From Eledone cirrhosa (Eukaryota): DNA of 64,000 nucleotides. Numbering within the stretch: the first letter of the stretch is position 1; every line of letters begins with the position of its first letter. The stretch lies in the NCBI GenBank assembly GCA_964016885.1, contig OZ024745.1:78988001-79052000 (forward strand). The letters run 5' to 3'. The translations under genes and the position numbers were made by a program. Below the pieces are notes generated by a model. That model was not told the DNA's origin, did not search any database, and saw only the letters and a list, made by a program, of their open reading frames with translations. This document shows, piece after piece, positions 7,333 through 56,042 of this stretch.

Positions 7333-8835
7333 TTTTTTTTTTTTTTTTTTAAACACTTTAGTCTTTATTGTGTTGTATCAGATGAAAGAATGGTATTTAA
7401 CTAATGTATTGGTACGCGATGGGGCACACCCACAGCCCCGGCGGACAGAATGGAGAAGGTGTTTCCCCGGAGGATGGCAAGGGAGACGCGCTGGAAAAGC
7501 CACTCCAACTCGCGAGGCTCACACCTGTGGCTGGCCAGCTCAGCGCCTATGGTGGTGAGTAAGGAGGTCCCTGGGGCCTTTGCCGTCCCCTCAATCCAGC
7601 CCCACCGGCTCGAGCTGGGAAGGGAAGCCTGCAGCATCCAAGCCATGCTTAATGACCTCATTGAGGGCAGCATGGTGTGGAATGCGGCCGGCACTGTGGC
7701 GACAGGAAAGCGGGTGGAGGCCGAAAGAGTCCACGGTGGAACCGCAGCGACACTGGTGTGGCTGGCAGATCCGGAGGCCGAGCCTCAGGGAAACGCCAAT
7801 TCGCAGGCTATGGTTGTCTAGCTGCGTGCCAGTGGAGAAGGAGGGCAGAGCATGGAGCCAGGCACCACTGTAGGGTTTGGAGGCCGCACGAAAACAAGCA
7901 AGGCGGTGCTGGTCGAGCTGGCGCGTGAGCCTGTCTGAGGCCAGGCTGCACCGGATGGCATCCCAAGTGCATTGGGGGGACTTGACGTCAACAGGAGAAG
8001 AAGGAGGAAGGACGTCTACTGGGCTAAGTCCCAGCCGGTCCCACGTCTCACAGGCAGCCTCACGTTCTCTGAACACAGAGGGTTCTGTTGTGTTTTGAAG
8101 AACCCTGCTGACAAGGACGCGGCACGCGGTTACCGAGGAAAGATACGCCGGCAAAGCTAGTGAGATCGAGGACCGGAGGCCTAGGCCGCCATACCTGATC
8201 AGTAAAGTGGCCTGTTGCCACCCTATGTCGTCAAACTTGATGTTGCATATCCCCTCGGCTGCTGCTCGGATACAAGTATCGAGGTCAGCAAAGAGAGATG
8301 TCTGGGTGTAGCATGGAGTGCTGCGGAGTGTATAAAGGAGCTTCGGCATGGCGAAGCAGTTCCTCAGCAGAAAGAGAGCTGGGTGGCCGTCAATCAAGCC
8401 CAGTCGGCTTGTGAGAGTCTGGAGCTGTTGAAGCCTGGACCTGATGGTGGAGCGGATGGCCGGCGGGTGGATCGGTGACCCGAGGATGAGGACATCCTCT
8501 TTGGGGGTCACCTGAACCTGGCGGAGAATGGGCCGCACGTCCAAGACGGAGGCTGCAAAGCTCGCAGCATCGAGGCTGACGTTCACCACTTCCGAGTTGT
8601 CCTGGAGGCCGATTCCCACCAGGGCAGGAATCACCAATTGAAGGTCTTGGCATACCATCCATACGGGCCCGCCCAACGTAACATCATCCAGATACCAAAC
8701 GTTGAAAGGAGCCGTGATACTCCGGGCGATGTCGTCAATACCAAGAGCGAACAGGAGGGGTCCCCCTGTTGGACCCAAGTAGCCGAGAGTATGACCGTAT
8801 CAGCAGCTAGGAGCATGCTCGGGGCTCCATATGAC
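7333..8835 (-). mobile_element. 5'-truncated CRE-like non-LTR retrotransposon (partial RT, CCHC knuckle, partly deleted RLE, polyA tail)
   Basis: WVQQGDP, WYLDD, GGLGLR, CRCGSTVDSFGLHPLSC, LEPVGL, WLFQRVSLAILRGN; AATAAA then an A-run at 7333-7350 on the minus strand; GC-rich relative to flanks. Confidence 0.85.
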
Positions 8836-11535: not shown

Positions 11536-12172
11536 TTACTTTATAGACCTCTTAAACTTTTGGTGTCATTAGTACATCTTTGCCTAAGTAACACAGGACT
11601 GAGGGTTTATGTTGTGTTGAATTTATCAAAGATAAATTTCAGAGATAACTTCCCCACAATATCTATCCCAACAGATAGATATATAAATAGAGGAGGCAAG
11701 AGAAATTTAAAGAACTTGTTTGGATGCAATAAAATTCATGACCCATAAGCTAGTAAACTGATACTTTAAACTATCGTGCTCTCAATATACACATCTACCT
11801 CTTCATAATCATTCCTGGTTCAGCACTTGTCTCTAGTTTCTATGTATATGAAGCACCCATAAGATAGGAAGTCAGTCTACTGCAGTAGAACCAACTAAAT
11901 GCAGAACTGCATGCCAACAAATTATGTTAATTTTACAGAGCAGGAGTGGCCTACAATAGTGAATGAAACAACCCAACAGTACCTGCTTGTTATCTAGTAC
12001 TTCATCTACTCAACTACTTGAGATATCCCACATGAATTAGATGAGATAAGATAAAATTAAAAGACACATAACATTCCATTAAATCAAAAAGAAAACCAAA
12101 CTAGAATAAGTGTGTAGAAATATAATAAATATATTTGACTAAATTCAAATACAGTAAATTTTTAGGGAGTGT

Positions 12173-12178
12173 TTTATT
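12173..12178 (-). terminator. Candidate polyadenylation signal (AATAAA) of GATD3A
   Basis: AATAAA about 270 nt after the stop codon on the minus strand; not verified, and such hexamers are common in AT-rich DNA. Confidence 0.3.
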
Positions 12179-12447
12179 GGGAACAACTGCCCAATTTCAC
12201 AGCATCTTCATTTCAAAGCTTCTCTAAATTGCCAAATGTTAATTCAACTTTGCTATTGGAGGAGTTTTTTTTTTTGTTTGTTTTTAATATAATTTTCAAA
12301 TGATTAAATATTGTTTCCTTTTTCTTCTTTTTTTTTTGTTAGCTAATTGGTGAATGAAACTGCAATCAGAAGTGGAAGAAACAAGATGGCATGAATGCTG
12401 CATCTTCTGGGGGAAAAAAAAAAAATCACACAAAAAAACAAAGCATT

Positions 12448-12573
12448 TTATTTAACCAGTTTCAGTACTCCTGTTACCATTTCACCAATGCCATCAAAAA
12501 CTTCATGTACTGCAGTTTCACACATGAAGGCTGGAGCAGTCACAATGCGGTTATTGATATCAATATGGGCTTC
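12448..12573 (-). CDS. GATD3A: GATD3A last coding exon ([41 protein letters not shown])
   Basis: 42 codons including TAA; preceded by a U12 branch point. Confidence 0.93.
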
Positions 12574-15500
12574 TTAAAAAAACAAAGTCAAGGAAAACAA
12601 CAGAAAACAAAAAAAGGAAAACATTTATTTTATCAAATCATTCAGTTTAAATACTTCATCAATTCCCTATCTTATAAGGAAGACTCTTAGACTAGCAATT
12701 TCTACTCTTTTCAGTTTATCGCATACCTTTGAAAGTTGATAAAAAAATTTATATTAATACTGTCTTCCAAGTGATCCTTGACACATTTTTTTTTGCCTGC
12801 TAGAAATAGCAGTTACATTTCCCTCTATCCATACTTATTTTTAATTTTTTTAAGAAAGAAAGATTCACTGGACAGTTTGGTCCCTGATATACAAAAAGAC
12901 AAGATAGTCACAGCTGGAACATGTTTCATCATAGGTATGCACATTCAAAGATGACCAGGAACAAAAGAACGGAAAAACTTCCTCTGTATATAACTGGTAT
13001 TTGCAAGGTTTTGCAAAACTCTTGTGGTTTTGACACTTTACTCATAGTATCCTAATATTTGAAGATATGAACTCTACAAGTTACATAGCAGACTTAAAAG
13101 TCGGTACAAAGTAGTGATAGTAATATGATAAAGCAGATTCAGTTCAAATTATAAGAAAATAACACAACAGATTTGGCTAAATTTCCCGTTGCAATGTGTG
13201 GTAGGTGATGAATGACTGGAGCAAATGGTAAGAGAAAAGACTAAGACAAGAAGTAGAATGAAGGTCCAAGATGGACTGCAGCAGGTGGTGAGACGGAGTA
13301 CAGTGAGTGACAAAACTCTGCAAGGACCCATCCAACCCATGCCATTGCGACAGATCCTTAAAATAGTTAAATACTCTTCGAGTGAAGAGGAATGGATTCA
13401 ATCAAAACTGAAGCAAATGCTCTATAGCTCTCCACAATACTGAAGATGGGATTTACTAAGAATTACAGGGATAAGAAATAGAATGTTAGGAGATACCCCA
13501 ACCTAAGATGTAAGTTAAGGCAAATGGCTGCAGTCAAAAATCACCACCAGGTCATGAACTATTCTCAATAGTGGCTTCGCACTATGGCTTACACTACAAT
13601 TTCAAAATATTGAATTCTTTCAACCAGACCTAGAGTCAATTTTTGCAAGAAAGAGAAAGTTAATTGAAACAAACCAAATATTAATGATACTAATTTTATT
13701 GAACCTTGGAAGAATGTGTAGCGGTTGTCTCCCTTGTTGTGACTCACAACCCCAATAGATTAACATCTAGACGGGAAGTAGAACCCTTTCTGTAACTTCC
13801 GGCAGAGCCCTATAAAACGAATAGCTCTCGGCTCTCTCCCTCTCATTTGCCCTTCCGGCGCCTGGCCTTCGCCAGGCATCTCGCGTTTGCCTGGCAATCA
13901 AAACGGTAACTACTAACTTTGCTTCATTCTATCATCTATTTCTTTGACATGTCAACTATACTGTTCTATATATATCCATGATTGTTAATTAAATATTATA
14001 CACACAAGCCATGTCTCCTTGTTACATTCATACAACCCAGTATCTTCGCTATAAATGTAAGGTACAACAAAATTTGAACTTAGATTTTTTTCAATTTCCT
14101 TTCAATTTAGTGATCCTCCAGGACGCCCCACATGCTTTTCCTAATCCACTCTGTCTATCATAAGTGTCCAAAACTCTTGTAAGTTGGCCATTCCAGTGAT
14201 TCTCAGTAGAGTGTTGATGTAGGTGATGGTCCTCTTGCCTCGAATGCTCTTCCTTCAGGTGGTTTCCAGAGCACCAGCTTGCAACTTCCTCATCATGACG
14301 CATGAAGTGGCTAGAGAATCTCATTCTCCATTGTTGTATCTTATGTGAAACCTTCAGGGGATGCTTATAAAGTTTCTGGCTTGTTGTACATACCTGCTGT
14401 GACATATTTGTTTCCATATGCAGCATTATGTGAATAAACTATCCAGTTGTTTCTTCAGTGTTTTCATGATTGTCCAAGTATCTGATCCGAATAACAAGAC
14501 TGATTCTACTGTTGCAGTGAATAGTCCTATTTTGATTTTCCTTGATCTCTGAGGTCCATATTTTTTTCATCTTGTTACAAGCATTCCATGCTAGTGCATT
14601 ACTTACCTCTCTGTCCATTCTCCTAGGTATATAAAGTTGTTTACCTCCTTCAAAACTTCCCCGTTCCTTACTTTGGTAACTACTGGCTTTTGTGGATTAA
14701 CCCTTTAGTGTTCAAACCGGCCAGAATTCTCTACCTCTTTCTGTTGAAATTGGCTGTAACTATCACTCAAACTGATGTTAAGGTATTGTTCTCAAAATAA
14801 ATACTTTCAAAATCTCATAGATTCGATATTATGTGAGGTAAAGCCTTTACCATGAAAATATAATAGTATATATAAAATAATGTGAATGCTAAAGGGTTAA
14901 AAACTTAAATTTCAGTCTTAGATTATATATAAATCTATTAATCATTTGTTTCCTATAAAATGACTAATTACTGTGCTAATAAGTGTTTACTCCCTCCTGG
15001 GATGAGCTATGGCATGAATTCACCTCCTGGGCAGTGCAGTATATAAGCAAACCAAAGTACCTTTTGAATAGAAGTTGTTGGAAGAAATTGATTCAATAGG
15101 GATGATGAATTTCAGAGTTTGATACAAAATTAATGTGTGACCATGGAGGTTTTTGGGAAAGCAAAAGTGGCAGAAATCTTCCATCTTGCGTAAATCTATT
15201 GCTCTCATTGAACACACCTTGCGGATATAGAAAAAGATACTACAAATAATTACTCAATAGATTGAAGTCAGACAGGGCAGCTGGACCCTCAGGGATAGTT
15301 GCTGAGATGCTGAAAGCATCAGGTAAGGTGGGCCACACCATAGTCTCCTGCATTGTAAACCAAGTTATACAAAATGATGTCATACCCAATGACTGGTGAA
15401 GCAGCAGCATCGTAAACTGCTACAAGAGCAAAAGTGATGCTCTAGAAAGAGAAAACTATAGAGGCATTCAGTTGGTTGACCAAGTTATGAAGGTCACTGA

Positions 15501-18500
15501 AAGAGTCATAGCTCAGCTGATTAGGGAATAAGTTAACCTAGATAAGATGCAGTTTGGATTTGTACCAGGTAAAAGTACCACAAATGCCTTCTTCCTTGTA
15601 AGATAACTGCAGGAGAAGTACCTAGGTTAGAGTAAACCCCTCTACTTGGTTTTTGTAGACCTGGAGAAAGCTTTTGACAGACTCCCCTGTTCCATTATCT
15701 GGTGGGCTCTTAGACAGTACAAGCCATGTGTAGAAGAACAGTCAGCAAGGTCAGAATTAACAATGATTACAACGAAGAATTTAGCATGCAGGTTGGTGTC
15801 AATCAAGGCTCAGTTCTTAGCCCTTTCTTGTTTATTATCATCCTGCAGACTATAACGGAGAAGTTTAAGACTGGCTGCCCTTGCGAACTTCTGTATGCAG
15901 ACCTAACCCTTTTAGCCAAATCTATTGCAAAATTAGAGATGAAAATCCAAACCTGGAAGCACAGCCTAGAATCAAAAGGTCTTAAAGTCAACTTGACAGA
16001 GACTAAAGTTCTAGTAAGTAGAAAGGAAAACAGGGCCCAGATCTCCTCAGGGAAATGGCCCTACTTAGTGTGTAAGAAAGGGGTAGATAGAAATTCTATC
16101 CTATGTCCCAAATGCAAACTATGGATACACAAGAGTTGTAGTGGGATCTCAGGCAGGCTAACAAAGATTGTAGGTTTTACATGTGGCCGATGCACAGGGG
16201 CAGTAAGTAGCAAGAGCTCTCAGGATACATCATCATCATCATACAATCTCCTTCAAATGCCAAGAGGGCTCTGTAGAAGTGGTAGATAGTTTCTGTTACC
16301 TGGCTGACCAAAGCAGCAGTGTGTTCTGAAAGCACAGTAACCAAAGATCGGGTTGGAGAAAGTTCAGAAAGCTACTATCGCTGCTAACTACAAAAGGTTT
16401 TTTCCTCAAAATGAAAGGCAGACTGTATGATGCCTGTATCCAAACATGAATGTTGCACAGCAGCAAGACCTGGGCACTGTGTGCAGAGGACCTGCAAAGA
16501 TTGGAAAGAAATGAAGCCTCCATGCTTTGATGGATGCGTAATAGCAATATATATAAAGAGCAAAGCATAAACGAACTGCATGAGAAATTAGGCATAAGAG
16601 GGATCAGATGCAGTGTGCAGGAGAGGAGATTACGTTGGTATGGACATATGATGAGTATGAAGGATGACAGCTGTATAAAAAGGTGCAGAGCACTCAAAGT
16701 TGACGGCAGCCATGAAGTGGGGAGAAGACATGGAATGAGGTAATAAAAACTGACTTTGCACAATTACAACTCACTAAGGTAATGACACAGGACTGTGATC
16801 TCTGGTGCTATGCAGTATTAGAGAAGACCCACCCTCCCAAATGCTCAAGCTGAGGAATATATCTAGTAGGCATCTCCCCTCCCATACACCTCCCTTGCTG
16901 TAATCATCCCACTCCTATACCTACATCCCTAATTCCCCAGGCATCTTCCTCACTCAAGTCCCCAACCCCACTGTAAAGTGGTCGTGTAGGTGCCACGACA
17001 AAAAGCACCCAGCCCACGCTGTAAAGTGGTCATGTAGGTGTCACGACAGAAAGCACCCAGCCCACACTGTAAAGTGGTCGTCTAGGTGTCACGACAGAAA
17101 GCACCCAGCACACACTGTAAATGAGGTTGGTGTTAGGAAGGGCATTGTATCTATGCATTGCATTTGTCAGGTCAATGTTACTGGCAATGCCATCTGTATA
17201 ATAGAGGTTAATAGTTTGTTCTAGTCCTATGAAATTCTATGGGCATATTCTTCCCGTGGAAGATGGACGTTAATCGATGATGATGATGAAATAGTCTATT
17301 TCATTGGAAAATATTGAATGCTATTTATTAAAATAACAAAAAGCACCCAGCCCACACTATAAAGTGGTCGTGTAAGTGTCACTTGTAGATATCAATTTCA
17401 TGTATACAGTTCATATATCATCCTTACATATCGAGATGTCAAACAGACAGGTAATGTAGTCTACAGATTTGTTGGTGTGCCATAAGAAAATAATGTTTTC
17501 TCATGGATATAGCTTAGATAAGAAATAGCACCTTCATTTGTATCAATTTTGTCTATCTCAGTTTAGGCATTATCATTTTGGTGCTCAAGCTATTATGGTT
17601 ATTGATGCAATTGTTTGCATTTTATAATTATTATCCAGCAATTATATTATTATTGTTGTCCATACTACCATTTGCTGCTAAGCACATTTAAATACATGGA
17701 GACTTCTGGTGTCCTTGGCCCTAGTGCCACCTCCCTACTCACCACCATCTACACAGAGTTGGCTACCTGCAGGTGAGAGCCTCGTGAGCTTGAAAGGCTC
17801 TTCCAGTGCGTCTCCCTCACCATCCTCCGGGGAAACGCCTTCTCTATGCTGTCTGTCGGGGCCGCGGAGCGGTTAGAGCGTGGGCCCCCATTTCCTCACA
17901 ATAGTGAGAGATGAAGTGGGAGAGACGGAGACAGTGAAAGTTTGGTTCCTTTGTGTTCAGACCTGGTGTATATGTGTATGTTTCACAGACACACACTCAT
18001 TCTTACAGTATGCAGCTGAAAAACTGACCTTTCTTCTTTGGTCAATAAATAGAACAAAGTTATTGAGAAACATACACAAGATGTTTTTTGTAATGTTTTC
18101 TAGTTTAGTTGTTTCCCTCTTTGACATATGAACCTTAGATGACTGACTGAAAAAACATTTTTTTTTACAAAAATCTACTGTTTAAGAGAAGGATTACTTT
18201 TCCAGTTTCTCAATGCTATGGTAACTAAAACACAACATTCATATAATTCAGAAAAAGAAGAGAAAAACTACTGGTATAAAGCTGATGGACCAGGTCATGA
18301 AAGTAACAGAAAGAGTTATAGCACAGTTGATTAGGGACCGGGTGAAACTAGACGAGATGCAATTTGGGTTTGTACCAGGAAGAGGCACCACTGATGCCCT
18401 CTTCCTTGTGAGGCAGCTACAGGAAAAGTACCTAGCTAAAAGTAAGCCACTCTACCTGGCATTTGTCGACCTTGAGAAAGCCTTTGACAGAGTTCCACGT

Positions 18501-21500
18501 GCTGTAATCTGGTGGGCTCTTAGAAAACTAGGAGTAGATGAATGGCTTGTGAAAGCGGTACAAGCCATGTATAGGGGAGCAGTCAGCAAAGTTAAGATTA
18601 GCAATGAGTATAGCGAGGAATTTAGCGTACAGGTTGGGGTCCACCAGGGCTCTGTTCTTAGCCCCCTCCTGTTCATCATAGTCCTGCAGGCAATAACGGA
18701 GGCAGCAAACAGCCACAGGAAACAAGTACCACCAATCTCTGGGAGGGCTCTGTAGAAACAGTAGACAGCTTCTGCTACCTAGGTGACCGAATTAGCAGCG
18801 GAGGTGGGTGTTAAGAAAGTACAATAACTAGGGTAAGAACGGGATGGAAGAAGTTTAGGGAACTACTACCACTGCTAGCTGCAAAAGGCTTCTCCCTCAA
18901 AATGAAAGGCAGACTGTATGATGCGTGTATCCGAACAGCGATGTTGCATGGTAGTGAGACCTGGGCGCTGAAGGTGGAAGACTTACGTAGATTAGAGAGA
19001 AACTAAGCCTGCATGCTCCAATGGATGTGTAATAGTAATATACGCGAACGACAAAGCATAAATGAATTGAGAGAGAGACTGAGCATAAGAGGAATCAAAT
19101 GCTGTGTGCAGGAGAGGCGGTTGCGTTGGTATGGACATGTGATGCGTATGAAGCATGACAGCTGCATAAAAAGGTGCAGAGCACTAGAAGTCGATGGAAA
19201 CCGCGGAGTGGGGAGACCCAAGATGACTTGGGATGAGCTGATAAAAGCCGACCTTACCCAATTACACCTCTCAAAGACGATGACACACGACCGTGACCTC
19301 TGGCGTCACGCAGTAATACAGAGTACCCAATCTCCCATGGGTACAAGCTGAAGCATACAGACAATATGCCCCCACACCCCCCACCGCAAGGTGGTCGTGG
19401 AGGTGCCACGGCAAAAAAGCACCCAGCCCACACTGTAAAGTGGACGTGTAGGCACCACGAAAAAGCACCCAGCACTCACTGTAAATGAGGTTGGTGTTAG
19501 GCAGGGCATCCAGCTGTAGAAATCAAGCCAAATCAGTTCCTGTATGAGCAAGGCATGGTCAGCCGACCAGACACTGCCCACAACAGGACAACCCGTCTAA
19601 CCCATGCTAGCGTGGAAGAACGGACGTAAAACGGTGATGATGATGATGAAACAACTTTTAAATTGAAAACCAATTTTGATCTATTTGAAAGCAAAGGATA
19701 TTGTAACTTCTTTGGTAATATGTGTGGCTCCCAGTTCCTTAATGCCTTCAGTTGTTCTTGCATAAGGCCATCTGTCATCTTCTTTGTCAGACCCTACTGT
19801 TACTTCACAGCCTTGTATCACTTTAGCAGCCAACACAGGAGCAATACAACACAATCTAGTTTAATTGAATGAAATAAAAAAAAATATAACCTGCAATCAT
19901 CATCATCATCCTCTTCCATAAAAGGAACTTATATTTTAGCTAAGTTAAGAGGGCTCATTCACAATTACTTCTTCATAATGTTGCAGATATCCATAATTAA
20001 TCGTGTGACACATTTAAATAAAGTACTGGAAGGGATTTAACAGACCATTATCAAGAATGTAACACAATCTAAAAATTCAATTTTCAAAGATGCAACACCA
20101 TTAATAATAAATAGCTGAAATTGTATTAAGGAAATAAGACATTCAGCCTCCTTGTTTCTAACTGCATATCTCTCCTCAGAACTGAAAATTATCTTATCCA
20201 TCAATGGATATTGCCACTCCCTTACCACAAAATTTTTTAATGCTCTTTTCATCCACTGCCATTAAATGTTGCAATGTACGAGAGCACACACCAATGTTCT
20301 TCTTTGCTCACTTATTCCTGAGAGAGTCATGGGTGTAAAGTGCTCAGATACGCCTTCCTGAGGGTCATGTCAGAAGCAATCATCTCCAGAGTGAGGAGGT
20401 TATACACTAGCTATTAAGGGGAGATAATTATTGCAAAACTTACTGCATGCTACAAGAGATTATTAATGAATTAAAATATCATTTGTTATTTAAAATATCT
20501 ACCTTTCAAGCATTCAACTAAAGTGCAGTTGCAATTAAAGGCTCGTTTAAGGGTGAAATTAACATACTATTGCCTGAAATTTTCTATATTTCAGGAATTT
20601 CCATTGACTGGGATTGGCAAAAATATGACTACTGGTACCAAAATGTCGTTAATGCTTTGATACTTACCCAACAGGTTTCTTGGCATCATGAAATTCTTTA
20701 AGAACCCGCTCAACATCTGCAATTACCTTCATGTCAGGGCCATCAATTGCAAAAGATGATCTGAAATGAAATTATTTATCAAACATCATTCTTCCACCCT
20801 TCGTTTTAATCTCTATTTTCCCATACAAGGATGACTTGATCTAATCTGAAATAATGACCAAATCTTTTGACATCTTATCTCCGAGGTCAAATACCTTCAG
20901 ATCTAAGTTAACCACTTTCTCCTAAATATTTCTTGGTCTACCTCAACCACAGATACTCTTCATCGCCCATACACACATATACATCTCATCTGAATATATT
21001 TACTAATACATTTGATGTACAATGTAAGAGTCTAGTTTCATTGTATTTAGCGACTGAAAAATGAACCTTCCCTTAGATAAGATGCTTGCAAACTGCAAAT
21101 AACATTAAGCGAAAACGTTATACTTCTCAACATCTAGGTGAATTAAGGTCTGAAAAACTAAGTGCACTGCCCAAAGGCATAATAAAATGCCTGCAATGGT
21201 TTTAAAACAAGTGGTCAACTAATACAGTATCCACTCAAGTTTCACTTCTACATACTTTTGTCGCCCGGTCATTTCTTTGTCTTTGAGATGAGATGACACT
21301 AGAACAGCAAAGATTAATAAGATTATTAGCTTTATTCTTTATATTGGAGAAATACCAAATAACTAGAAAAGAGGCCAGGTGCCAGGTATAGCTAGCAACG
21401 GCAGAAAAGAAGAAATTTGTGCATGTTCAGATTAATCTGGTGGGTACTTAAAATATGTGTAGATGAATGGTTTGTGAGAGTAGTGCGGGTCATGTATAAA

Positions 21501-24500
21501 GGAGCAACAAGAAGGGTGAAGGTTGGAAGCGAGTACAGTGATGAATTTGAAGTGCAGGTGGGCATCCACCGGGACACAGTCCTCAGTCCACTCCTGTTTA
21601 TCATTGTTCTTCAGGTCATCCTGCAGGGCTTTAAATTGGCACAGCACATCATGGGAGCTCTTATATGCTGATGACCTAATCCTTATAGCTGAATCGATAG
21701 AGTTAGAGACACAATTTCAAGCGGGGAAGAAGAACCTAGAGTTGAAAAGCCTAAAACTAAATTTAGCAAAGACAAAAATGTTAAGTAGGAAAGAGGACAG
21801 GAGGGTGATGCCATCTGGGAAATGGCCTTAATTGATACATCAGAAGTGGGCAGAAATTCTATAAGGTGCACACAGTGCAATTTATAGATGCACAAGAGAT
21901 GTAGTGGGATTGCAGGCAGATTAACAAAAAATATAGACTTTGTATGTGACAGATGCACAGGAGAAGTAAGCACTAAGAATTCACATGAAGTAGATTCATT
22001 CAGCTGCCAAGGAGGCTTCTTAGAAGTTGTCAACAGCTTTTGTTACTTAAGTGATCAAATTAGCAGTGTGGGAGGATGCACAGAAAGTGTGATAGCCAGG
22101 ATCAAAACAGACTGAAAGAAATTTTGAGAGCTGATACCTCTGCTGACAACAATGCTACATGGCTGTGAAACATGGGCCTTAACCGCAGAAGACTTGCGAA
22201 GGCTGGAAAGAAATGAAGCAAGGATGCTCCAATAGGTGCGTAATGTTTGTGTGCATGACCAACGTAGCATAAGCGAACTGAGAGGAAAACTTGGCATAAG
22301 AGGAATTGGATGTAATATCTCAGAGAGAAGACTGCACTGGTATGGACATGTGATGCATATGGAGGATAGCAGCTGCATAAAGAAATGCAGAGCAATCCCA
22401 GTGGTTGGAACCTGTGAAAAAGGTTAACCCAGGAAGAGCAACCTAAGAAACTAAGCCTCACAACTGAGATGACAAAGATCAAGAGGGCTGGCGTTATGCT
22501 GTGATGATGAAGACCCCTGGCCCATCCATCATGAGCTCCATCCCACTAGCACTGCCCACCAACAATCTTCACCACTACTGCACCCACAAGACATGCCCCT
22601 CCTTAACTACTACTCCACCTTTAAAACCCTAAGATATCCTCACCATTGCTCTAGTAATTACTCTCTCTACCCCTTGTTCTTCCCCCACTACAACCCCTTA
22701 CCACCATATTACCTATCTCTCCACTATGCCCCCATTCTCTCAGCCACATCCCCACATTACATCCCGCCTTCCCCATAAACCAATCAGCCATCCCTACTCC
22801 TTACTCATTGCCGTTAAATAACCACATACACCTATAACTTCATACCTATCTCCCTCCCCTATTGTCCCCCACCACACAACAGAGTGTTCTTCAGTTGGGA
22901 CTTTGACCAACAACCTCTCTAGTGATGGTGCCACAAAAATGCACCCAGTACACTCTGTAAGGGTGGTTGGCAACAGGAAAGGCACCCTACTGTAGAATCC
23001 ATGCCTAAAAGGGTTGAGTGGACCTTTTAGTTGTGTCAAAAACACAACAATCTCTCTAGTGTTGGGGATCAATACGAGAAACACACCCAGTACAAGCTGC
23101 AAAGTGGTTGATGATAGGAAGGGCATCCAGCCATAGAAAGCTTACCAAACAAGGGATTGGGAGGACCCTTCAGTTTGTGTCAAAAGACACAACCTCTCCT
23201 CTGATAGAATGTATGACCGTATGTAAGCAGGGTGCAGGTACTTCGGCCTTTCTGGGAGGTCAATAGCCCCATTCTGACTTGCTAGCAGGAAAGCAAATGA
23301 TGATGATGATGATTGTTATTTACTTTATATAGAAATGTCAACAGAGCAACTTAAAAGAAAAATTCAGGAGTTCAACTGCAGTTTAAGTAATAAAAGCATA
23401 TATGAACCCATACAATATGTTTACACTGTAATGTGGTTTGTAGTGCTGGTGCTATGAAAAAAGCACCCATTCCACCCTGTCAGGTGTTAGTGGTGGTACC
23501 ATAAGATAAAAAAAAACCTGACATTCCATGAAGTAGTTGACATTAGGAAGGGCATCCAGTTGATGAAACTATGCTCTGTTTGGCAAATTTTCTACAGCAG
23601 GATGCCCTTCCTATCACCAACCACTTTACAGATCACATACATATACTAGAGAAATTTAAAAAAACAAAAAGACAACTTACAAATTTTTTGCAGCTCCAAA
23701 TCCACCAGGAAAAATGACTGCATCAAAAGCACTTGCATCCAGTTCAGAAAGAGAAGAGATTTTACCTCTAGCAATACGAGCTGATTCTAATAGTACATTC
23801 CTGGAAAAAAATGTTTAAACACATAATGAAAAAAATAGCATTATTGCATGAGAAACAACAGTAGAAGCAGTCTGTTGTTCTTGGTACATTATCTAGTTTT
23901 TGTAATATGTACCCTTTGTATTCCTTTCAGGCTTGTGCTTGCCCAACAATGATGTTAACATACTTCTGTTTGATATTTTGTTGAAAAATATCTTCCTTCT
24001 CTGCATGAGCTTTTCTCACTGGAAGTGTTTTGAGAGATCATTACCACAAGCCAATGAAACACTCATCAAATACAATGTTCTCTGTTGTTCACTGTAGTCA
24101 ACTACAACACTTTCTATTTGTATATATTTTTAGTACAAACACCATGAATCAGGACCAAATACATAAACCACCATCAGTGTCATCTATTTAACCTTTTTTT
24201 TTAATATTACCCTTCCTTCAAAAAAAAGAATGTATAAAAAAAATGAGAAACTGTCCTTAGTCATGTACTGTAGATTACCAAATCCTTCTCAACATTGAAA
24301 TGATCAAGTTAGTCATTTAGACTTTGCAAAAACACTTTCCAGCTTGGAAAGAATATAGAAAATGTAATAAGTACAATAATACATGCATGTGGCCAAAGAA
24401 AGTGCCCAATTTTCAAATGGGTGACACTGCTTTTGGGGACATCTAAAGAAACATTAGATTAGACAGTCAACTGTAATACAATAGAACCATTATGTTCTAG

Positions 24501-27500
24501 GAATATGATGTTGTGGACTTAATCAAGACAAATCTGTTTGCTCCAGTTTGCATGATTGGAAAAAAACATTCCACACCTGTTTCAGCCATTAAGTTGTTAA
24601 TATGATGAGTAATTTGAAGGGATTTGTTTCCCACTGTGAGTAATAGTTGGTAAATAAATAAAAATGTATGAATATATAAATAAAAGTAAACAAATTATCA
24701 TCATCATCATCATCATTTAACATCTATTTTCCCTGTTGCAAGGATTGGACAGGTTACCACAGACCAATTTAGTACTCAAACGAAGCTACTGACCTCACAG
24801 ATGGGCCAGGATTCTATTTCACTCAATTAAGTTCCCACACTGTACTGGGTGTTCAAGCAAGCCAGGGGCCCCACATCTTGCTTACAAAAACATACGTTAC
24901 CACACTCTACTGAGTGCATTTGATCAAGGCACCCGCAATGTGGAGGTTGTCATATCTTTGACACAGCTGATGAGTCTTCCTGACCTTTTGTTTGGCAGGT
25001 TTTCTATAACTGGATGCCCTTTCTATCACCAACCACATTACAGAGTGTACTGATGTAGTGTACAAGAGAGAAAGCTATGCTGGTATGATCATGAGATGCA
25101 TATGGAAGATGAAAGCTGTATAAAGCAGTGCAAAGAAATTTCAGAAAATGGGACTTGTGAAAGAGGTAGATCTAGAAAAACATGATAAAATGGTGAAGAC
25201 CAACTTTAGGAAGCTATATCTCATGACAGAGATGACAAAGCACCACAACGATTGGTGACATGCTGGACTAGAGGAGACTCATCTACTGGTATAAACATGA
25301 TACCAGGTAAACCTAGTAACCTACCACTCCATTTCTGCTATAGAATTTTGTGGCTACTTAAGAAGCTAAAGATAGAAGAATGGCATGTAAGGGCTGTAGA
25401 GGCTATGTACAGAGGTGCAACCACCAATGTAAGAATCAGTAATGAGTAGTGACAATGTTAGTGTACTGGGTGTCCCCCAAGGCCCAGTCCTCAGCTTCCT
25501 GTCACTACAGTCCTTCAGGCAATAATAGAAGAATTCAAGACTGGTTGTCCAAGAGAGCTCCTAAGTGCGAATGATCTAGCCCCCACAGATGAAATGATAA
25601 AATAACTAGAGATAAAGTTCCAAACATGGAAGCAAAATCTGGTATAAATGAGCCTAAAAGTAAAGACCTTGCTACCATGAAGGAAACAGCCCTATTCAAT
25701 CTGTAGAAAGAGAGTGGTTAGGAATTCTATATAGTGTACCTAGTGTAGACTGTAAACATACAAGAAATGTAATGGAATCACAAGTAGGCTGGCAGGGAGG
25801 ACAGATTTCACATGTGACAGATGCACAGAATAGTCAAGAGTAAGGGTACTGATGAAATAAATCCACCAGAAGTGGTAGAAAGCTTCTATCTAGATGATCT
25901 CATTAGTAGCGGAGATGTGTGTACAAAAAATGTTGTAGTTAAAGTGAGAACAGGGTGAAAGAAATTCAGGGAACTGTTACTTCTGCTGGAAACAAAAAAT
26001 CGCTTTCAGAGTGAAAGGCAGATTATATGATGCATGTGTTCAAACTGCAGTGTTGTATGGCAGTGAGACATAGGCCTTAAATGCAACTACCAAAAATATA
26101 AGGAAGTACTTTGAGAACAATTTATTCATATTAATTAATTATTATTTGATGAAAAATATTTAATGGAAATTATATTTACCTGATGTACTAAATATAGAAA
26201 TATTTACATTAAAGAAAAAAAGATTTTTCAAATACACTTCTGTGCATTTCCATTTTTATTTTTTACCTATAACCTACAATTTGTATTGAACTTTACCCTG
26301 CCTTTTTTTAACTATATATATATACAGGGTGCGGACAATATTTGTTCGCAATTTTCAACTGCTAATTCTATGCAAATTTTTTACTTCCGTTGTCACTCTT
26401 GTCTTCATAAAAACAGTAACTATATTTCCATTATTTATTTTCAGAATAATTGATTATGAATAATTTTGAACCTCCAAATTTGTGGAAGAGACACGGAGAT
26501 CTTCTTGGAATCTGCGCCGGGAGGACAAATAAGACCAGAAGATCAACTCTCAGAACAACAGGTGGCTCGCTGTCTCATCCAAAGACGTGCCAAGAGTCAT
26601 GCAGACAAAGTTTCCAGCGACAACATTGGTCTTAGGTGTCATCAGCAGTCAAGGTGACGTCATGCCACCTCACTTCTTTCCTGAGGGCCTAAAGCTGAAC
26701 ACCGATGGCTACATCCGCGTTCTGAGCGAGATAGTAAAGCCCTGGATCGACCAGATAGCTGCAGGTAGGCCGTACGTGTAGCAACAAAACTCAGCGCCCT
26801 GCCATACCAGCCGAAAGAGCCAAGCTTGGCTGTCAGAGAACTTCGTCGACCACACTTCACCTGACATCTGGCCTCCCAGCTCGCCTGACTGCAACTCCCT
26901 TGACTTCTTTGTGTGGGGCGCAGTGGAACGAGACACCAACAGATCTAGCTGCAATATGAAAGACGATCTGAAGGCCAGAATCATAAGTGCCTTTAGGGGC
27001 CTAAGTTGGGTGACAGTGACGAAGGGCTGTAGCCGGTTCCGAGGCCGCCTTGAGGCCGTCATCAAAGCCAATGGCGGGTTTATCGAGAGATCGAAAGAAC
27101 AAGTCATGAAGACAAACTGACCCAAGTTTGATAAATATATCTTAAAAAATAAAACTAGTGTTATTTTTTCCTAGACAGTAATCTTGCGAACAAATGTCGT
27201 CCGCACCCTGTATATATAGTTCTCTTGAGTAATGGTCTAATCAGTTTAAAACTGAATCCATTCTGATTTATATGTGTGTGTGTGTGGGGGGGGGGGGGGG
27301 GGGGGGCTAGGAAGACTTAGTTGAGGTGATAAAAGCTGACCTTGCACAATTGCACCTCTCAAAGGTGATGACACAAGATCAACATCTCTGGCGTTATGCA
27401 GTAATACAGAAGACCCACCTCCCCATGTGCACGGATTGAAGCATACATCTAATATGCACCACTTTCCCCTACCTTCTCCATCTTTTCCATCTACCTCCTA

Positions 27501-30500
27501 CATTCTAACACCCGACACTTCACCAGATAAGTGCCCCACCCTAAATCCACCTCTCCAATCCCCATGCACCCCACCCCAGCCCCAGCCCACACTGTAAAGA
27601 GATCGTGTAAGTGTCACAACAAAAAGCACCTAATCCACACTGTGAAGTGGTCATGTTGATGATATGACAAAAAACACCTAGTCCATACTGTAAAGTGGTG
27701 GTTTTGGTGCCACGATAAAAATCACCCAGTCCACACTAAATGTAGTTGGAATTTAGAAGGGCATCATCATCATCATCATCATTTTACGTCCGCTTTTCCC
27801 TGCTTGCAAGTGTGGGACGGGTCTTATTCAGCACAGCATCTCTCCACTCGTCACGGTCCCTCGTCATCTCCACCGTGAGCTTCAATGATCTGAGGTCTGT
27901 TCTCACCACCTCCGCCCATGTTTTTCGTGGTCTACCTCTACCACGTCTTCCTTCAACTGGCATTTCCTGGCACTTCTTCACCCATCGGTCATCCTCCATG
28001 CGCATCACATGTCCATACCACCTCAGTCTCCTCTCCCGTACACTACATTCTATCCCTCTCAGACACAGTTTCTCTCTCAACACATTTATGCTGGGTCGTT
28101 CACGCACATTTACACTGCACATCCAACGGAGCATGCTTGCCTCATTTCTCTCCAGCCGTCGCATATCCTCTGCGGTTGCTGCCCATGTCTCACTACCATG
28201 CAGCATCGCGCTCCTCACACAGGCATCATACAACCGGCCTTTCGTACGCAGGGAGAAACCCTTCTTCGTCAACAGAGGAAGCAGCTCCCTAAACTTCTTC
28301 CAACCCGTCCTTATTCTAGATACTATGGCTTCGGAACACCCTCCTCCCATGCTAATCTGATCTCCTAGGTACCGGAAGCTATCCACCACTTCTATAGCGC
28401 CCTCTCGCATTTGAAAAATGTGTCTATCAGTGCGACTTCTACTGTCTAATTTCCCTGTACATCTACTGCATACATATTTCTCCCTACCTGTTAGTTTGCC
28501 TGCTATCCCGCTACATCTCTTGTGTACCCAGGACCTGCATTGTGTGCATTTTATAGAATTTATACCAGTTCCTTTTCTGCATATCGAACATGGCCATTTC
28601 CCTGACGTATTAACGAAGCCAGAATCAGTTCTGTATGAGCAAGACATGATCGTCTGATCTGGCTTCTCACACAACAAGACAATTTGTCTAAGCCATGCTA
28701 GCGTGGAAAAACGGACGTTAAACAATGATGATGATGATATATATACATACACATAAAACTACAAACAGATTAGGATGCCCAATATGGCCAAAACCCAGAA
28801 AAAGATAATATATATCTGCACCTGTTTGGCTCCATTGGTTCTCCCTTCTGGTGATTGATAGTGTGCATCTGTTCAACATCTGGTGCAAACATGGACACAC
28901 AGGCTTGATTACGACTCAAGTGCACCAATACACTGCAATGTAAAAATTGGAGTTATATTAATTTTAAACATGAGATTTAACTATAAATGGCATCTTTCAA
29001 AAATGCAAGAGCTCAGATATATATATGTAAAAGTAACAATGAAATGAAACCACTGATATTTATATTGGTTTCACCGAAGATATTAGCTAAATACATGAAA
29101 TAATTACAATCGTAAAATGAAACTAGCTTATGACCTTGGCATGTCTGAGGCATACTTAATATTTTTGTGGGGTTCTTTGAATATAAGATTTGATATGAAG
29201 GCATAAATTTTCACATATAGAGAGGAGGCAAGATTGTTTCAACATTCTAGCCTTTCTTAAGGGCAATGGTAACGCAAGTGAAGTCTAATGGTAGCCACAA
29301 GGATTTGAACATGAAATGTATTGCTAACATTACTCTGCAGTGCTTGGCTACTAGAAAGTACTTAGGAAAATTAATCCTTTTCTCGTTTTTTTTTACACTC
29401 ATTTTTTATCATGTTTTTCGTGTGACATCCATAACAAACAAATGGTATTGGAATATCATCATCATCATCATCATCATCGTTTAACGTCCGTGTTCCACGC
29501 TTGCATGGGTTTGGACGGGGGTTTTCCCACTTGAGGCAAGAGTGATTGTCTTGCTCGCATAGGACTGTCTGGCGGGTTTTCTACAGCTGGATGCCCTTCC
29601 TAACACCAACCACATTTAAGTTAAAGCAAACATATCAGTAATATACCCCCCCACCCCCCCCCCAAAAAAAACCCACATAGAATCTGACAAGCAATTGAAA
29701 GGATCTCAACAGTCATCTAATTTACTAAAAATAGCAGCCAAATCTCCCTAGCACCTTTAACCCTTTAGCATTTAAACCGACCGTATCCAACCAGAATTCC
29801 CTCACCTCTTTCAGTTCAAACTGGCTGTAACTAGCCACTCATACTGATGTTAAAATAAATAACATCAAAATCTCATAGATTCAATATTATATGGGGTAAA
29901 GACTTTATCACAAAAATACAATAGTATATATAGAGTATTGTAAATGCTAAAGGCATGCTTGAGGACTCTTCCACTACAGCCTTCTTAGGAATATGTGGCT
30001 GAAAAAGGAGTTATAACCATCATTATGAACAACAACAACAGTCCACTAATCTTTAAAATAATTGTTTCTACTTTTGGCACAGGGCCAGCAATTACCCAGT
30101 ACATTACTGGTACTTTATTTTACCGACCCCGTAAGGATGAAAGGCAAAGTTAACCTTGGCGGGATTTGAACTCAGATCGTAAAGGGACGTAACTCTTTGC
30201 GTCAAAGCATGGCGTCCGACCCTCTAAAATAATGAAACATTCAAATGCTATGCTTTCAACAACTTCAACTAGGGAGTGAAACTTAAGATATTGTCAAACT
30301 CTTTAAAATAATACAAATTCAAGAGTTTCACTTTAAAGACATAACCAGTGCTATGAAAATCTATCAATTTATGCAGCAAAATAGATATAGAAACATTTGT
30401 AAAACATGGAATTTCCATGGGTCTTACTAGTTATTATTATTATAATTGTTTTTATCATTATTTATTATTAACTACTTACGCAGAAGCCTCGTGGATTTCA

Positions 30501-30532
30501 CTGCCATCATAAACACCGCAGCCTGAAAGAAC
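12448..30532 (-). CDS. GATD3A: ES1 protein homologue / glutamine amidotransferase-like class 1 domain-containing protein 3 (mitochondrial, DJ-1/PfpI superfamily); spliced and 5'-incomplete. Exons 30532-30480, 28932-28822, 23800-23681, 20760-20668, 19855-19702, 12573-12448
   Basis: The six exons join in frame (657 nt, 218 aa + stop): [25 protein letters not shown]...MFAPD...[13 protein letters not shown]...[11 protein letters not shown]...[15 protein letters not shown]...WPYA...[29 protein letters not shown]. All are hallmark ES1/ElbB motifs. Confidence 0.95.
13717..14053 (+). mobile_element. Solo LTR (337 bp) with 4-bp TSD, inserted in an old SINE
   Basis: aatg|TGTAGCG...CGCTATA|aatg; internal TATAAAA near 13811; the flanks rejoin to a decayed copy of the ttttattga.c...gaa.atg.aagg...atttgaact SINE. 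Confidence 0.75.
14091..14696 (-). mobile_element. Degenerate RTE-clade LINE of a different family (C-terminal region)
   Basis: [59 protein letters not shown]. Confidence 0.7.
14701..14896. mobile_element. piggyBac-type MITE
   Basis: TTAA|CCCTTTAG...CTAAAGGG|TTAA; a second copy is at 29761. Confidence 0.85.
15260..17290 (+). mobile_element. RTE LINE (RT to 3' UTR), decayed
   Basis: [29 protein letters not shown]-like Cys/His, [11 protein letters not shown]; 3' UTR has about 49-bp tandem repeats (aaagcacccagcccacactgtaaagtggtcg). Confidence 0.9.
17700..17885 (+). mobile_element. 3' fragment of the CRE-like family seen at 7333-8835
   Basis: Matches the reverse complement of 7430-7580 ([27 protein letters not shown]). 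Confidence 0.8.
18265..19650 (+). mobile_element. RTE LINE, internally deleted, with (GAT)n tail
   Basis: ORFs 18285-18755 ([28 protein letters not shown]) and 19013-19351; tail cggacgtaaaacggtgatgatgat. Confidence 0.92.
19702..19855 (-). CDS. GATD3A: GATD3A exon ([11 protein letters not shown]...WPYA...KEVT)
   Basis: AG acceptor, U12 ATATCCTT donor; contains the GLCCIAP nucleophile-elbow motif. Confidence 0.95.
20668..20760 (-). CDS. GATD3A: GATD3A exon ([31 protein letters not shown])
   Basis: ttcag|...|gtaagt; phases match the neighbouring exons. Confidence 0.95.
21430..23250 (+). mobile_element. RTE LINE 3' half with 3' UTR, decayed
   Basis: [27 protein letters not shown], (GAT)n tail near 23260-23310. 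Confidence 0.88.
23681..23800 (-). CDS. GATD3A: GATD3A exon ([12 protein letters not shown]...[11 protein letters not shown])
   Basis: ttccag|...|gtaagt; conserved ES1 motifs. Confidence 0.96.
24698..26090. mobile_element. Cluster of RTE tail (-) and decayed RTE coding (+) fragments
   Basis: (CAT)n + tail motif at 24700-25050; [29 protein letters not shown] at 25340-26090. Confidence 0.75.
26325..27210 (+). mobile_element. Tc1/mariner DD37D (maT-type) deletion derivative
   Basis: TA|CAGGGTGCGGAC...GTCCGCACCCTG|TA termini; QQ(D/N)SAPCHT...[13 protein letters not shown] with 37 residues between the 2nd and 3rd catalytic positions; most of the N-terminus is deleted. Confidence 0.92.
27305..27762 (+). 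mobile_element. RTE 3' end and UTR fragment
   Basis: [17 protein letters not shown].. followed by the UTR tandem repeats. Confidence 0.8.
27763..28606 (-). mobile_element. Relatively intact RTE 3' fragment (second subfamily, ORF reaching the tail)
   Basis: Open [12 protein letters not shown]...LHGSETW...[10 protein letters not shown]...EKRT* followed directly by (GAT)n. Confidence 0.92.
28822..28932 (-). CDS. GATD3A: GATD3A exon ([37 protein letters not shown])
   Basis: ttgcag|...|gtgcag; in frame with neighbours. Confidence 0.95.
29455..29620 (-). mobile_element. RTE 3' tail fragment
   Basis: (CAT)n-cgtttaacgtccgtgttccacgcttgcatggg, near-identical to 48731 and 51412. Confidence 0.85.
29761..29953. 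mobile_element. piggyBac-type MITE, second copy
   Basis: TTAA|CCCTTTAGCATTTA...TAAATGCTAAAGG; collinear with 14701-14896. Confidence 0.8.
30063..30224 (-). mobile_element. tRNA-derived SINE (Meta-like central domain), 5' truncated, with TSD
   Basis: B-box gagttcaaatcc, gcctttcatccttacggggtcg core; flanking direct repeat taaaataat. Confidence 0.8.
30480..30532 (-). CDS. GATD3A: GATD3A exon ([18 protein letters not shown])
   Basis: ttcttcag|...|gtaagt; signature N-terminal ES1 motif. Confidence 0.96.
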
Positions 30533-31065
30533 CTGAAGAATGAAACAGTTATTAGTATAAAAAAACAAAGAAAATCAAAGTTATATATATATATATATTT
30601 TTTTAATATTTATATCTGTAAGCCAAAGTGTAATATATACATAATACTGTATTTCTTAATGTAAAATATGTTTCTAAAGAAAAAAAAATGGAAATAAACT
30701 AATCTTGTGTATAATACCAGTCTATATAAAGTTTTTTGAAGCGTGTACCATGAGAGACCTTATGTAGCCCCTTTATGAATTTATGATTCCCAAATAACAA
30801 ATATTGATGATATATCAAATACCATTTGTAAATAACTGTTATCAATAATCTTGCCACTTGGAATGAGTATTTTTAAGTTCAGTAAAAATTTCTGAAAACA
30901 TGTACTTTTAAAATACAACTCACCCTAACATAACTCACTCTACTACATGTGTCATACACACACACAAACAATATCATACTTGTCATCTTTTCTTGTATAA
31001 TATATATGCATCTTCAGCTATCTCTTTACATCAGTTTGCCAAACACTGAACACACACCACCACCA

Positions 31066-32417: not shown

Positions 32418-33047
32418 GGGTGCGGACGACATATGTTCGCATGAATACTGTCTAAGAAAAAATAACACAGTACTTTTATTTTTTTAAGATATATTTATCA
32501 AACTTGAGTCAGTTTGTCTTCATGACTTGTTCTTTCGACCTCACTCGATAAACCCGCCATTGGCTTTGATGACGGGTGCTGAGTCTTGGTGCCACACGTA
32601 CGGCCTACCTGCAGCTACTTGGTCGATCCAGGGCTTTACTATCTCGCTCAGAACACGGATGTAGCCATCGGTGTTCAGCTTGAGGCCCTCAGGGAAGAAG
32701 TAAGGTGGCATGACGTCACCTTGACTGCCGACGACACCTAAGACCAATGTTGTCGCTGGAAACTTTGTCTGCATGACTCTAGGCACGTCTTTGGATGAGA
32801 CAGCGAGCCACCTGTTCTTCTGGGAGTTGATCTTCTGGTCCTTATTTGTCCTCCCGGCGCGGATCCCAAGAAGAACTCCATGTGTCTTCCACAAATTTGG
32901 AGGTTCAAAATTATTCATAATCAATTATTCTGAAAATAAATAATGGAAATATAGTCACTGTTTTTATGAAAACAAGAGTGACAACGGAAGTAAAAAAATT
33001 TGCTTAAAATTAGCAGTTGAAAATTGCGAACTAATATTGTCCACACC

Positions 33048-48143: not shown

Positions 48144-48390
48144 TCTAGTTTTGAGTGTGTGTGTTTTAGTTAAGTATTTCAATATATATATATTTTTTTT
48201 ATTTATTTTTGTTTTTTGTTTTTCTTGTGTGTGAGTGAGAAGAGTATATATATAAATATGAGTATATATATATATATATATATGTATATTCTGGTTATTT
48301 GAAATTAATTAAATTAATGAAAAGACGAAAGTATATAATAATAATTTGTAGTTAAAGGAAAATGTACTCACAAGTTGGAAAACACAAGGT

Positions 48391-54400: not shown

Positions 54401-54598
54401 GTCCAACGTGACCATTTAGGTCGCCTGCAATAATTATATAGTCACTGTCGGATATTTGGGAGGTAGTTAGCATTAGTGTCTCATAGAATCTGTCTTTTAT
54501 AGTGCCGGGCAGTCCGGATTGGGGTACGTACGCAGATATTACTGTCACCGTAGTTCTATTGAGGACAAGTCGTATTTTAATTATTCTGTCGTTCACTC
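51412..54598 (-). mobile_element. Near-complete, little-decayed RTE LINE (APE + RT + PHD-like finger; two frameshifts; 5' truncated)
   Basis: ORFs 52806-54596 (596 aa), 52126-52734 and 51810-52010 are collinear. Confidence 0.95.
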
Positions 54599-56042
54599 TA
54601 TATATATATATTCATTTATATATATATACATATACATACATACATATATATATATTCATTTATATCATTATCATCATCGTTTAACGTCTATCTTCCACGC
54701 TAGCATGGGTTTAGACGGGAATTGTTCCACTTGAGGCAAGATTGGTTGTCTTGTTCGTATAAGACTATCTGGCAGGTTTTCTACGGCTGGATGCCCTTCC
54801 TAACACCAACCACATTTAAAGTGTGAACTGGGAATTTTTTACCGTGTTACCTACACGGCCACATTACAGCGTGGACTGTGTGTTTTTTTTTGTTGTGACA
54901 CCTGCACGACCTCATTTATTAAGGACTGAATTTTGTGGTACCAACATAACTTTACAGAGAGAGGGTGGTGTTGGTGGGAGTGGGGGGTGTATATTTGATT
55001 AAGAGGTGCCTACTGACTGTAGGTTTTGCTATGTACATAGGCAAGGCGGGTCTTCTGTATTACTGCGTAGCGCCAAAGCTCTCGGTCCAGTGACATTGTC
55101 TTAGAGAAGTGTAAGAGTGTAAGGTCGGAATTTATCAAATCATCCCAGGTTTTTCTGGGTCTAGCTACTGCGTAACTTCCATCAATTTTGATCACCCTGC
55201 ACTTTTTTATACAGCTGTCGTCTTTCATGCGCATCACGTGACCATACCAACGAAGTCTTCTTTTGAGTAAACAGCATCTGATCCCTCTTAATCCTAATTT
55301 CTCACTTAGTTCATTTATGCTTTGCCGTTAGCGTATATTACTATTACACATCCAACGGAGCATGCATGCTTCGTTCCTCTCCAGTCTGCGCAGGTCTTCT
55401 GCACACAATGCCCATGTCTCACTGCCATGTAACATTGCTGTTCAGATGCACGCATCATACAGTCTACCTTTCATTTTTAGAGAGAAACCTTTTTCCATCG
55501 CGTTCTGACTCTGGCTACTGTACTTTCAAAGCACCCTCCACCATTGCTGATCTTGTCACCCAGGTAACGGAAGGTGTCCACTATTTCTATAGAACTATCT
55601 GGGCAATAGAAGGAGCTAGTATCCTGTGGGCACATGCTACTTATTGCACCTGAGCACCGCCCACATATAAAATCTATGTTCTTAGTTAGCTTACCTGAGA
55701 TCCCACTACATCTTTTATGTACTCATAGTTTGCATTTGGGACATAAAATGGAATTTCTGCCTACTCCTTTCCTACACACTGAGCATGGCCATTTCCCAGA
55801 GGGGACCAGTGCCCTATTTTCCTTTCTACATACTAGAACTTTATTCTTAGACAAGTTAACTTTAAGGCCTTTTGATTCTAGACCATGCTTCCATGTTTGG
55901 AATTTCTTCTCTAGTTCGGCCATCGATTCAGCTGAGAGTTAGATCATCAGCGTATAGAAGTTCCCATGGGCAGCCGGTGTTGAACTCCTCTGTTATAGCC
56001 TGAAGAGCAATAATAAATAGGAGGGGGCTAAGGACAGAGCCT

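Follow-up and report, generated by a model that had tools for sequence, protein, structure and literature searches.

A U12-type intron with AT and AA ends in the GATD3 gene of the octopus Eledone cirrhosa

How is an intron that starts with AT and ends with AA removed precisely from a conserved gene, and from what kind of intron does it descend? This question is raised by a stretch of 64,000 nucleotides (nt) of the octopus Eledone cirrhosa (assembly GCA_964016885.1, contig OZ024745.1, positions 78,988,001 to 79,052,000), called the window below and used for all coordinates unless stated otherwise. Its minus strand carries GATD3/ES1, a gene for a mitochondrial enzyme, whose last intron had been proposed in an earlier note, made from the letters of the window, to be a U12 intron with AT-AA termini. 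According to the analysis presented here, this intron is very probably removed exactly at its AT...AA ends, joining 19702 to 12573, probably by the minor spliceosome and with an ancestral AT-AC intron likely as its source through a C-to-A change. It is a verified new case of a known rare subtype, the AT-AA minor intron. The features on which the argument depends are the following.

12574..19701, minus strand: intron 6 (the last), 7,128 nt, phase 0, U12-type, AT...AA, defined by its signals and by the joint in data set X1
19693..19701, minus strand: U12 5' splice site ATATCCTTT, pairing with the 5' end of the genome's U11 and with U6atac
12587..12597, minus strand: U12 branch site TTTTCCTTGAC, with the predicted branch A at 12588 (-15), bulged in the pairing with U12
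12574..12575, minus strand: terminal AA acceptor, identical in DNA contigs of data sets X2 and X5 (the latter a second species)
19702..19855, minus strand: exon 6, 154 nt, with an X1 contig placed on exactly 19702-19855
12448..12573, minus strand: coding part of exon 7 and stop codon (EAHID...LVK*), with an X1 contig in support

The final codons of exon 6, ...GAA GTT ACA, end at 19702 and the intron opens with ATATCCTTTG at 19701; its donor ATATCCTTT agrees with the U12 consensus RTATCCTTT (PMC1635337), as expected of what had been described as a perfect U12 donor. The branch site TTTTCCTTGAC conforms to TTCCTTRAY near the 3' end, with its A at the distance of about 15 nt before the last exon given earlier. 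The intron terminates in ...TTTTTTAA at 12574, and exon 7 begins GAA GCC CAT at 12573. Exon starts at 12573 and 12570 are both in frame and both preceded by AA; use of the nearby AG acceptors (exon starts 12572 and 12569) would produce 10 and 9 out-of-frame residues, respectively, followed by a stop, in line with the frameshifts that the earlier note had predicted. Neither U12 motif is at the exon edges by chance, since both are rare: in 128,000 strand positions there are 8 instances of [AG]TATCCTT and 7 of TTCCTT[AG]A[CT], and the probability of finding the two at these edges is about 3e-8 (a simple product, with 10 positions allowed for the branch site). Other U12-like signals inside the intron amount to four RTATCC hexamers and three CCTTRAY sites, none of them a full donor. 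With AT first and AN other than AC last in the DNA of two species, the intron belongs to the A-type (AT-AN) subtype.

The joint was read from contigs placed on a short acceptor stretch; over the longer span 12000-30800, repeats overwhelmed the placement and no exon joint emerged. In X1, a contig of 774 nt at depth 179 matches exactly 19855-19702 and has 29 letters over; placed at the acceptor, this contig extends over 12574-12545 and leaves 30 letters free, all of them equal to 19703-19732. It thus connects 19702 to 12573 letter for letter, at the junction position foreseen, and in a simulation of four candidate exon starts only 12573 reproduced its ends. In X12 and X17, which come from two further organisms and separate studies, contigs pass from exon 7 to letters of an upstream exon at this very codon boundary. 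The three data sets are recorded as kinds '?' and 'DNA?', not as RNA; a transcript source is nevertheless likely, because the contigs skip the intron exactly and the genome holds no processed copy of GATD3 (none among the 7 scored genome candidates), a single-copy gene in 3.0 Gb. The earlier note had also named a misread base 12574 as a possible source of error, and the DNA contigs keep the A. A DNA contig of X2 crosses 12443-13741 with 0 differences, and the intron-side X1 contig has no difference at the terminal AA. X5 (DNA of another organism, 5% diverged) has 17 differences over about 340 nt, of which none falls on 12574-12575, and its branch site, TTCCTTGAT, still fits the consensus. As the DNA of a further species retains AA, the terminus is not an assembly error. 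At the acceptor, the restriction-site-associated DNA sequencing run X21 has a depth below 1.

The host encodes the small nuclear RNAs (snRNAs) that such an intron would need. Genome matches over the Rfam cut-offs number 2 for U11, 1 for U12, 1 for U4atac and 15 for U6atac, the last figure counting matches and not copy numbers; set beside the single matches to U12 and U4atac, most of the 15 U6atac-like sequences are probably retrocopies. Duplexes computed for U11, U12 and U6atac reach -6.6, -13.7 and -6.4 kcal/mol, respectively, with the branch A bulged, and three matches to exons of the CCDC84/CENATAC family are present in the genome. In the mechanism proposed, U11 and U6atac would read the donor ATATCCTTT, and U12 would pair with TTTTCCTTGAC, leaving the A at -15 bulged. 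The 3' end would then be fixed mainly by its distance from the branch site, with A tolerated as last base, which would explain why AA is preferred to the AG that follows one base later. Such tolerance has precedent, as the last base of U12 introns starting with AT may be A, C, G or T according to U12DB (PMC1635337). Being an A-type minor intron, it is also predicted to require CENATAC, like the human orthologue; depletion of CENATAC is reported to affect 92% of A-type introns (de Wolf et al., PMC8280824). The last intron of human GATD3A/GATD3B (C21orf33) is listed in the same study as U12 AT_AC, with flanks ..GTGGTC|ATATCCTTCC at the donor and ..GCACAC|GAAGCT at the acceptor; 48 h of CENATAC depletion raise its retention from 0.068 to 0.418, and its dependence on the minor spliceosome is documented by CENATAC and ZRSR2 data (PMC8280824 supplement). 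The human entry bears out the claim of an AT-AC intron in the vertebrate orthologue, and the spliced contigs together with the snRNA pairing do so for a U12-type AT-AA intron in the octopus gene.

Several points weigh against this conclusion. Which spliceosome acts is inferred, and so is the RNA nature of the X1, X12 and X17 contigs, from the skipping of the intron. The last bases of the exon and of the intron are both A, allowing the joint to slide by one base, and AA...TA fits equally well; the choice of AT...AA, and with it the exactness of removal seen in these contigs, was made by U12 consensus only. The predicted branch A at -15 lies farther out than in homologous introns (-11 to -13). 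X2 is possibly the sample behind the assembly, and contigs lose rare variants, leaving room for some use of the neighbouring AG.

In an unlikely account, the intron is of the U12 type but is spliced in more than one way: an appreciable fraction of transcripts would use the AG at +1 or +4 or retain the intron, and the AA would set the enzyme level in a leaky manner, the frameshifted C-termini escaping decay because the intron is the last. AGs do precede exon starts 12572 and 12569, the X12 contig stops after 30 letters of exon 6, where a branch to an unspliced form would make it end, and A-type introns are described as having relatively high basal retention (PMC8280824). The intron-side X1 contig, with a depth of 25 alongside the spliced depth of 179, can be cited on the same side, but contig depth cannot rank gene parts and 3'-biased libraries over-cover last introns. 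Moreover, the contigs of all three spliced data sets contain no alternative joint, and basal retention in human is low, 0.04-0.07 (PMC8280824 supplement). The unspliced X1 contig spans 12545-13759 over the 3' end of the intron and is a weak hint of retention only; as a gauge of retention, contig depth was rejected as evidence.

Removal by the major (U2) spliceosome is very improbable, whether with AT as a non-canonical start or by way of a concealed GT-AG pair. U2-type AT-AC introns exist (PMC1557818), a long pyrimidine tract precedes the 3' end, and gene predictors have found GT/AG patches (protein model P0020). However, in U2-type AT-AC introns position +5 is G (PMC2831892) and the end is AC, in contrast with the full U12 donor with C at +5 and the AA end seen here; the branch site matches the U12 motif in full, the letters of the joint fit no GT-AG reading, and the human orthologue responds to the loss of minor-spliceosome factors (PMC8280824 supplement). 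That AA is an assembly error or a private allele of an ordinary AT-AC or AT-AG intron has next to no probability: the T-rich run before the terminal base and the possible identity of the X2 and assembly samples would favour it, but X2 and the intron-side X1 contig are identical at that base, the second species X5 refutes the error, and an unrelated invertebrate locus, L044, has the same intron also ending in AA.

If removal of an AT...AA intron by the minor spliceosome is thus preferred, where did its terminal A come from? Homologous introns were sought in a scan of metagenome contigs that yielded 56 loci, most of them intronless (bacterial genes or transcripts). The junction could be read in 11 genomic animal-like loci, by protein alignment only, and the first five of those below include both ends of the intron.

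L048:1560-1864: homologous intron AT-AC, 305 nt
L049:2406-2732: homologous intron AT-AC, 327 nt
L044:934-1742: homologous intron AT-AA, 809 nt
L043:1172-2150: homologous intron AT-AG, 979 nt
L033:374-760: homologous intron GT-AG with full U12 signals, 387 nt
L037:1898-1906: donor GTATGCTTT, GT with C-to-G at +5, acceptor not covered

L050 shows an AT donor only, and L038 a more degenerate GT donor, its acceptor not being covered. In a quick tree search (69 rows, no bootstrap), support by the Shimodaira-Hasegawa-like approximate likelihood-ratio test was 98 for L033 and L037 with Dreissena/Mactra and 96 for L049 with stony corals, and L043 and L044 remained unplaced. The coral-like L048-L050 have an extra intron within their exon-6 counterpart, after ...LAAKV. 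L061 (7333-10003) and L063 (near 7384), two divergent animal homologs, have no U12 intron and carry a GT-AG intron with U2-like signals 9 nt (three codons) upstream, with a U2-like acceptor in both and the GT donor seen there in L061, which suggests sliding or replacement. At L054:4352-4540 the intron is absent and another lies farther upstream; this locus is closest to the amphibian ES1-like proteins P0110/P0116.

Because human and two stony-coral loci have AC, AT-AC is the parsimonious ancestral state and the change would have run from C to A, with AA now common to two octopus-like species. The idea of an ancient AT-AC intron whose last C became A is therefore favoured in its direction. Its second half, that this took place as the intron filled with transposons, is not supported, since the 809-nt L044 homolog is AT-AA as well. 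A more ambitious reading, advanced tentatively and with the balance of probability against it, would order the states at this single site into an escape ladder, from AT-AC (human, corals) through an early spiralian AT-AA (octopus, L044) to AT-AG (L043), then U12 GT-AG (the heterodont bivalve L033) and finally a +5 C-to-G change towards U2 (the bivalve L037). A single early C-to-A change would then have been kept for hundreds of millions of years, making AT-AA, and not only AT-AG, a stepping stone; this too is doubtful. The ladder is prompted by the absence of AC from all four non-coral invertebrate lineages for which both ends were read. Against it stand the small sample and the two of these lineages that are unplaced in the tree, and the junctions and order of the states are themselves inferred.

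The host gene assignment comes from homology to ElbB/ES1 and from the full-length protein, which place the gene in GATD3/ES1 (DJ-1/PfpI superfamily). Seven exons, joined with the AT-AA intron removed, encode a 254-residue product collinear with RefSeq XP_029658415.1. The ElbB/ES1 model NF008747 matches exons 6 and 7, with single-exon scores below the whole-protein cut-off, and octopus GATD3 proteins rank first among the homologs, at 82-88% over exon 6; searching Pfam and PDB by sequence with individual exons yielded nothing of use. Mapping by tblastn put exon 1 outside the window and the other six within it, and the 3' untranslated region extends below 12000. Upstream of exon 6 the gene is organised as follows.

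20668..20760, minus strand: exon 5, 93 nt; intron 5 GT-AG, 812 nt
23681..23800, minus strand: exon 4, 120 nt; intron 4 GT-AG, 2,920 nt
28822..28932, minus strand: exon 3, 111 nt; intron 3 GT-AG, 5,021 nt
30480..30532, minus strand: exon 2, 53 nt; intron 2 GT-AG, 1,547 nt
outside the window, contig positions about 79,061,745-79,061,852, minus strand: exon 1; intron 1 about 43 kb

The donor of intron 3 (28821-28812, minus strand), GTGCAGATAT, is a weak U2 donor. For GATD3, an intron of 7.1 kb is not unusually long. About 63% of the last intron is repeat-derived, 4,496 of its 7,128 nt matching other window sequence or the retrieved loci in blast cover, and for a large part of its length contigs are much deeper than a single-copy sequence would give; repeat content was assessed by these two measures, as Pfam found no domain in any of the six open reading frame (ORF) fragments inside the intron.

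The expectation that gene predictors would mis-model such an intron is borne out: in O. vulgaris (CAI9718577.1, CAI9718576.1) and in a cuttlefish (CAE1264899.1), the submitted models continue past the donor (VT-ISF...). The RefSeq models carry the correct joint. Among 218 homologous proteins, a set biased by its exon-6 queries and including plain ORF calls on genomic contigs, 178 have an intact joint, 28 an IS[FL] read-on and 4 a VS[FL] read-on; another 7 differ in some other way, and in 1 the exon is missing. Many of the 28 read-ons are from vertebrates, so that the fault lies with the AT donor rather than with AA, and misannotation of the AT donor in vertebrate GATD3 models is systematic. 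Vertebrate models that also read through or patch the donor include P0182, P0183, P0187, P0190, P0191, P0200, P0211, P0213 and P0216, among others.

The remainder of the window is rich in mobile elements. Two ORFs of long interspersed nuclear elements (LINEs) lie within GATD3 intron 1, one of 985 residues with Pfam RVT_1 (45354-48308, minus strand) and one of 601 residues with Pfam RVT_1 and Exo_endo_phos_2 (52809-54611, minus strand); many shorter fragments like the latter are scattered across the window. Further mobile-element-like ORF fragments occur at 1-816 and 26533-27117 on the plus strand and at 7594-8799, 32544-32924 and 61863-62990 on the minus strand. By their motifs these appear to be Penelope-like, reverse-transcriptase-like and Tc1/mariner-like; the three compared with Pfam had no match there.

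What does the locus contribute? It allows correction of models that leave a conserved mitochondrial enzyme truncated or patched, offers a natural test of how the minor spliceosome chooses AA over an AG one base off, and, by the spread of termini at one position, makes the route from AT-AC to GT-AG to U2 testable with mollusc and annelid genomes. The vertebrate orthologue C21orf33/GT335 is given in the earlier note as one of the AT-AC genes described early. Searches of full-text literature outside subscription papers turned up nothing on a GATD3 minor intron or on cephalopod minor introns, and a search of the Moyer 2020 text with one supplement file gave no match. The intron type itself will not surprise specialists, AT-AA making up about 1% of conserved animal minor introns. 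Larue and Roy present it as the commonest non-canonical minor terminus in animals and plants, with 823 conserved animal cases (1.1%) and 690 in plants (3.0%) in their Table S1 (PMC10639083); Octopus sinensis belongs to their data set, and the octopus GATD3 intron may already be in their tables.

Compared with the human GATD3A intron, the octopus intron has the same position and phase 0, before the codons for EA(H), with an AT donor ATATCCTT and a U12 branch site; the human intron ends in AC, measures 1,459 nt and has its branch A at -11 within TTCCGTAAC, whereas the octopus intron ends in AA, measures 7,128 nt and has its predicted branch A at -15. Changes of terminus between orthologous introns are the subject of the literature on subtype switching, in which AT-AG has been proposed as an intermediate (PMC2831892, PMC1557818) and a +5 C-to-G change as the step turning a GT-AG U12 intron into U2 (Lin et al., PMC2831892). 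The GATD3 site is set apart by showing five states (AT-AC, AT-AA, AT-AG, U12 GT-AG and GT with +5 G) at one position, though these are spread over separate lineages, most of them without RNA and some unplaced. Also close are the eight AT-AA U12 introns reported by Sheth et al. in human, mouse and Arabidopsis (PMC1557818), including those of human RASGRP4, FLJ21106 and MSH3 and mouse IK (Tables 2-3). MSH3, given there as an AT-AA/AT-AC orthologue pair, parallels octopus and human GATD3. Like these introns, the octopus intron has a complete U12 donor, a complete branch site and a terminal A, and it differs from them only in host gene and lineage.

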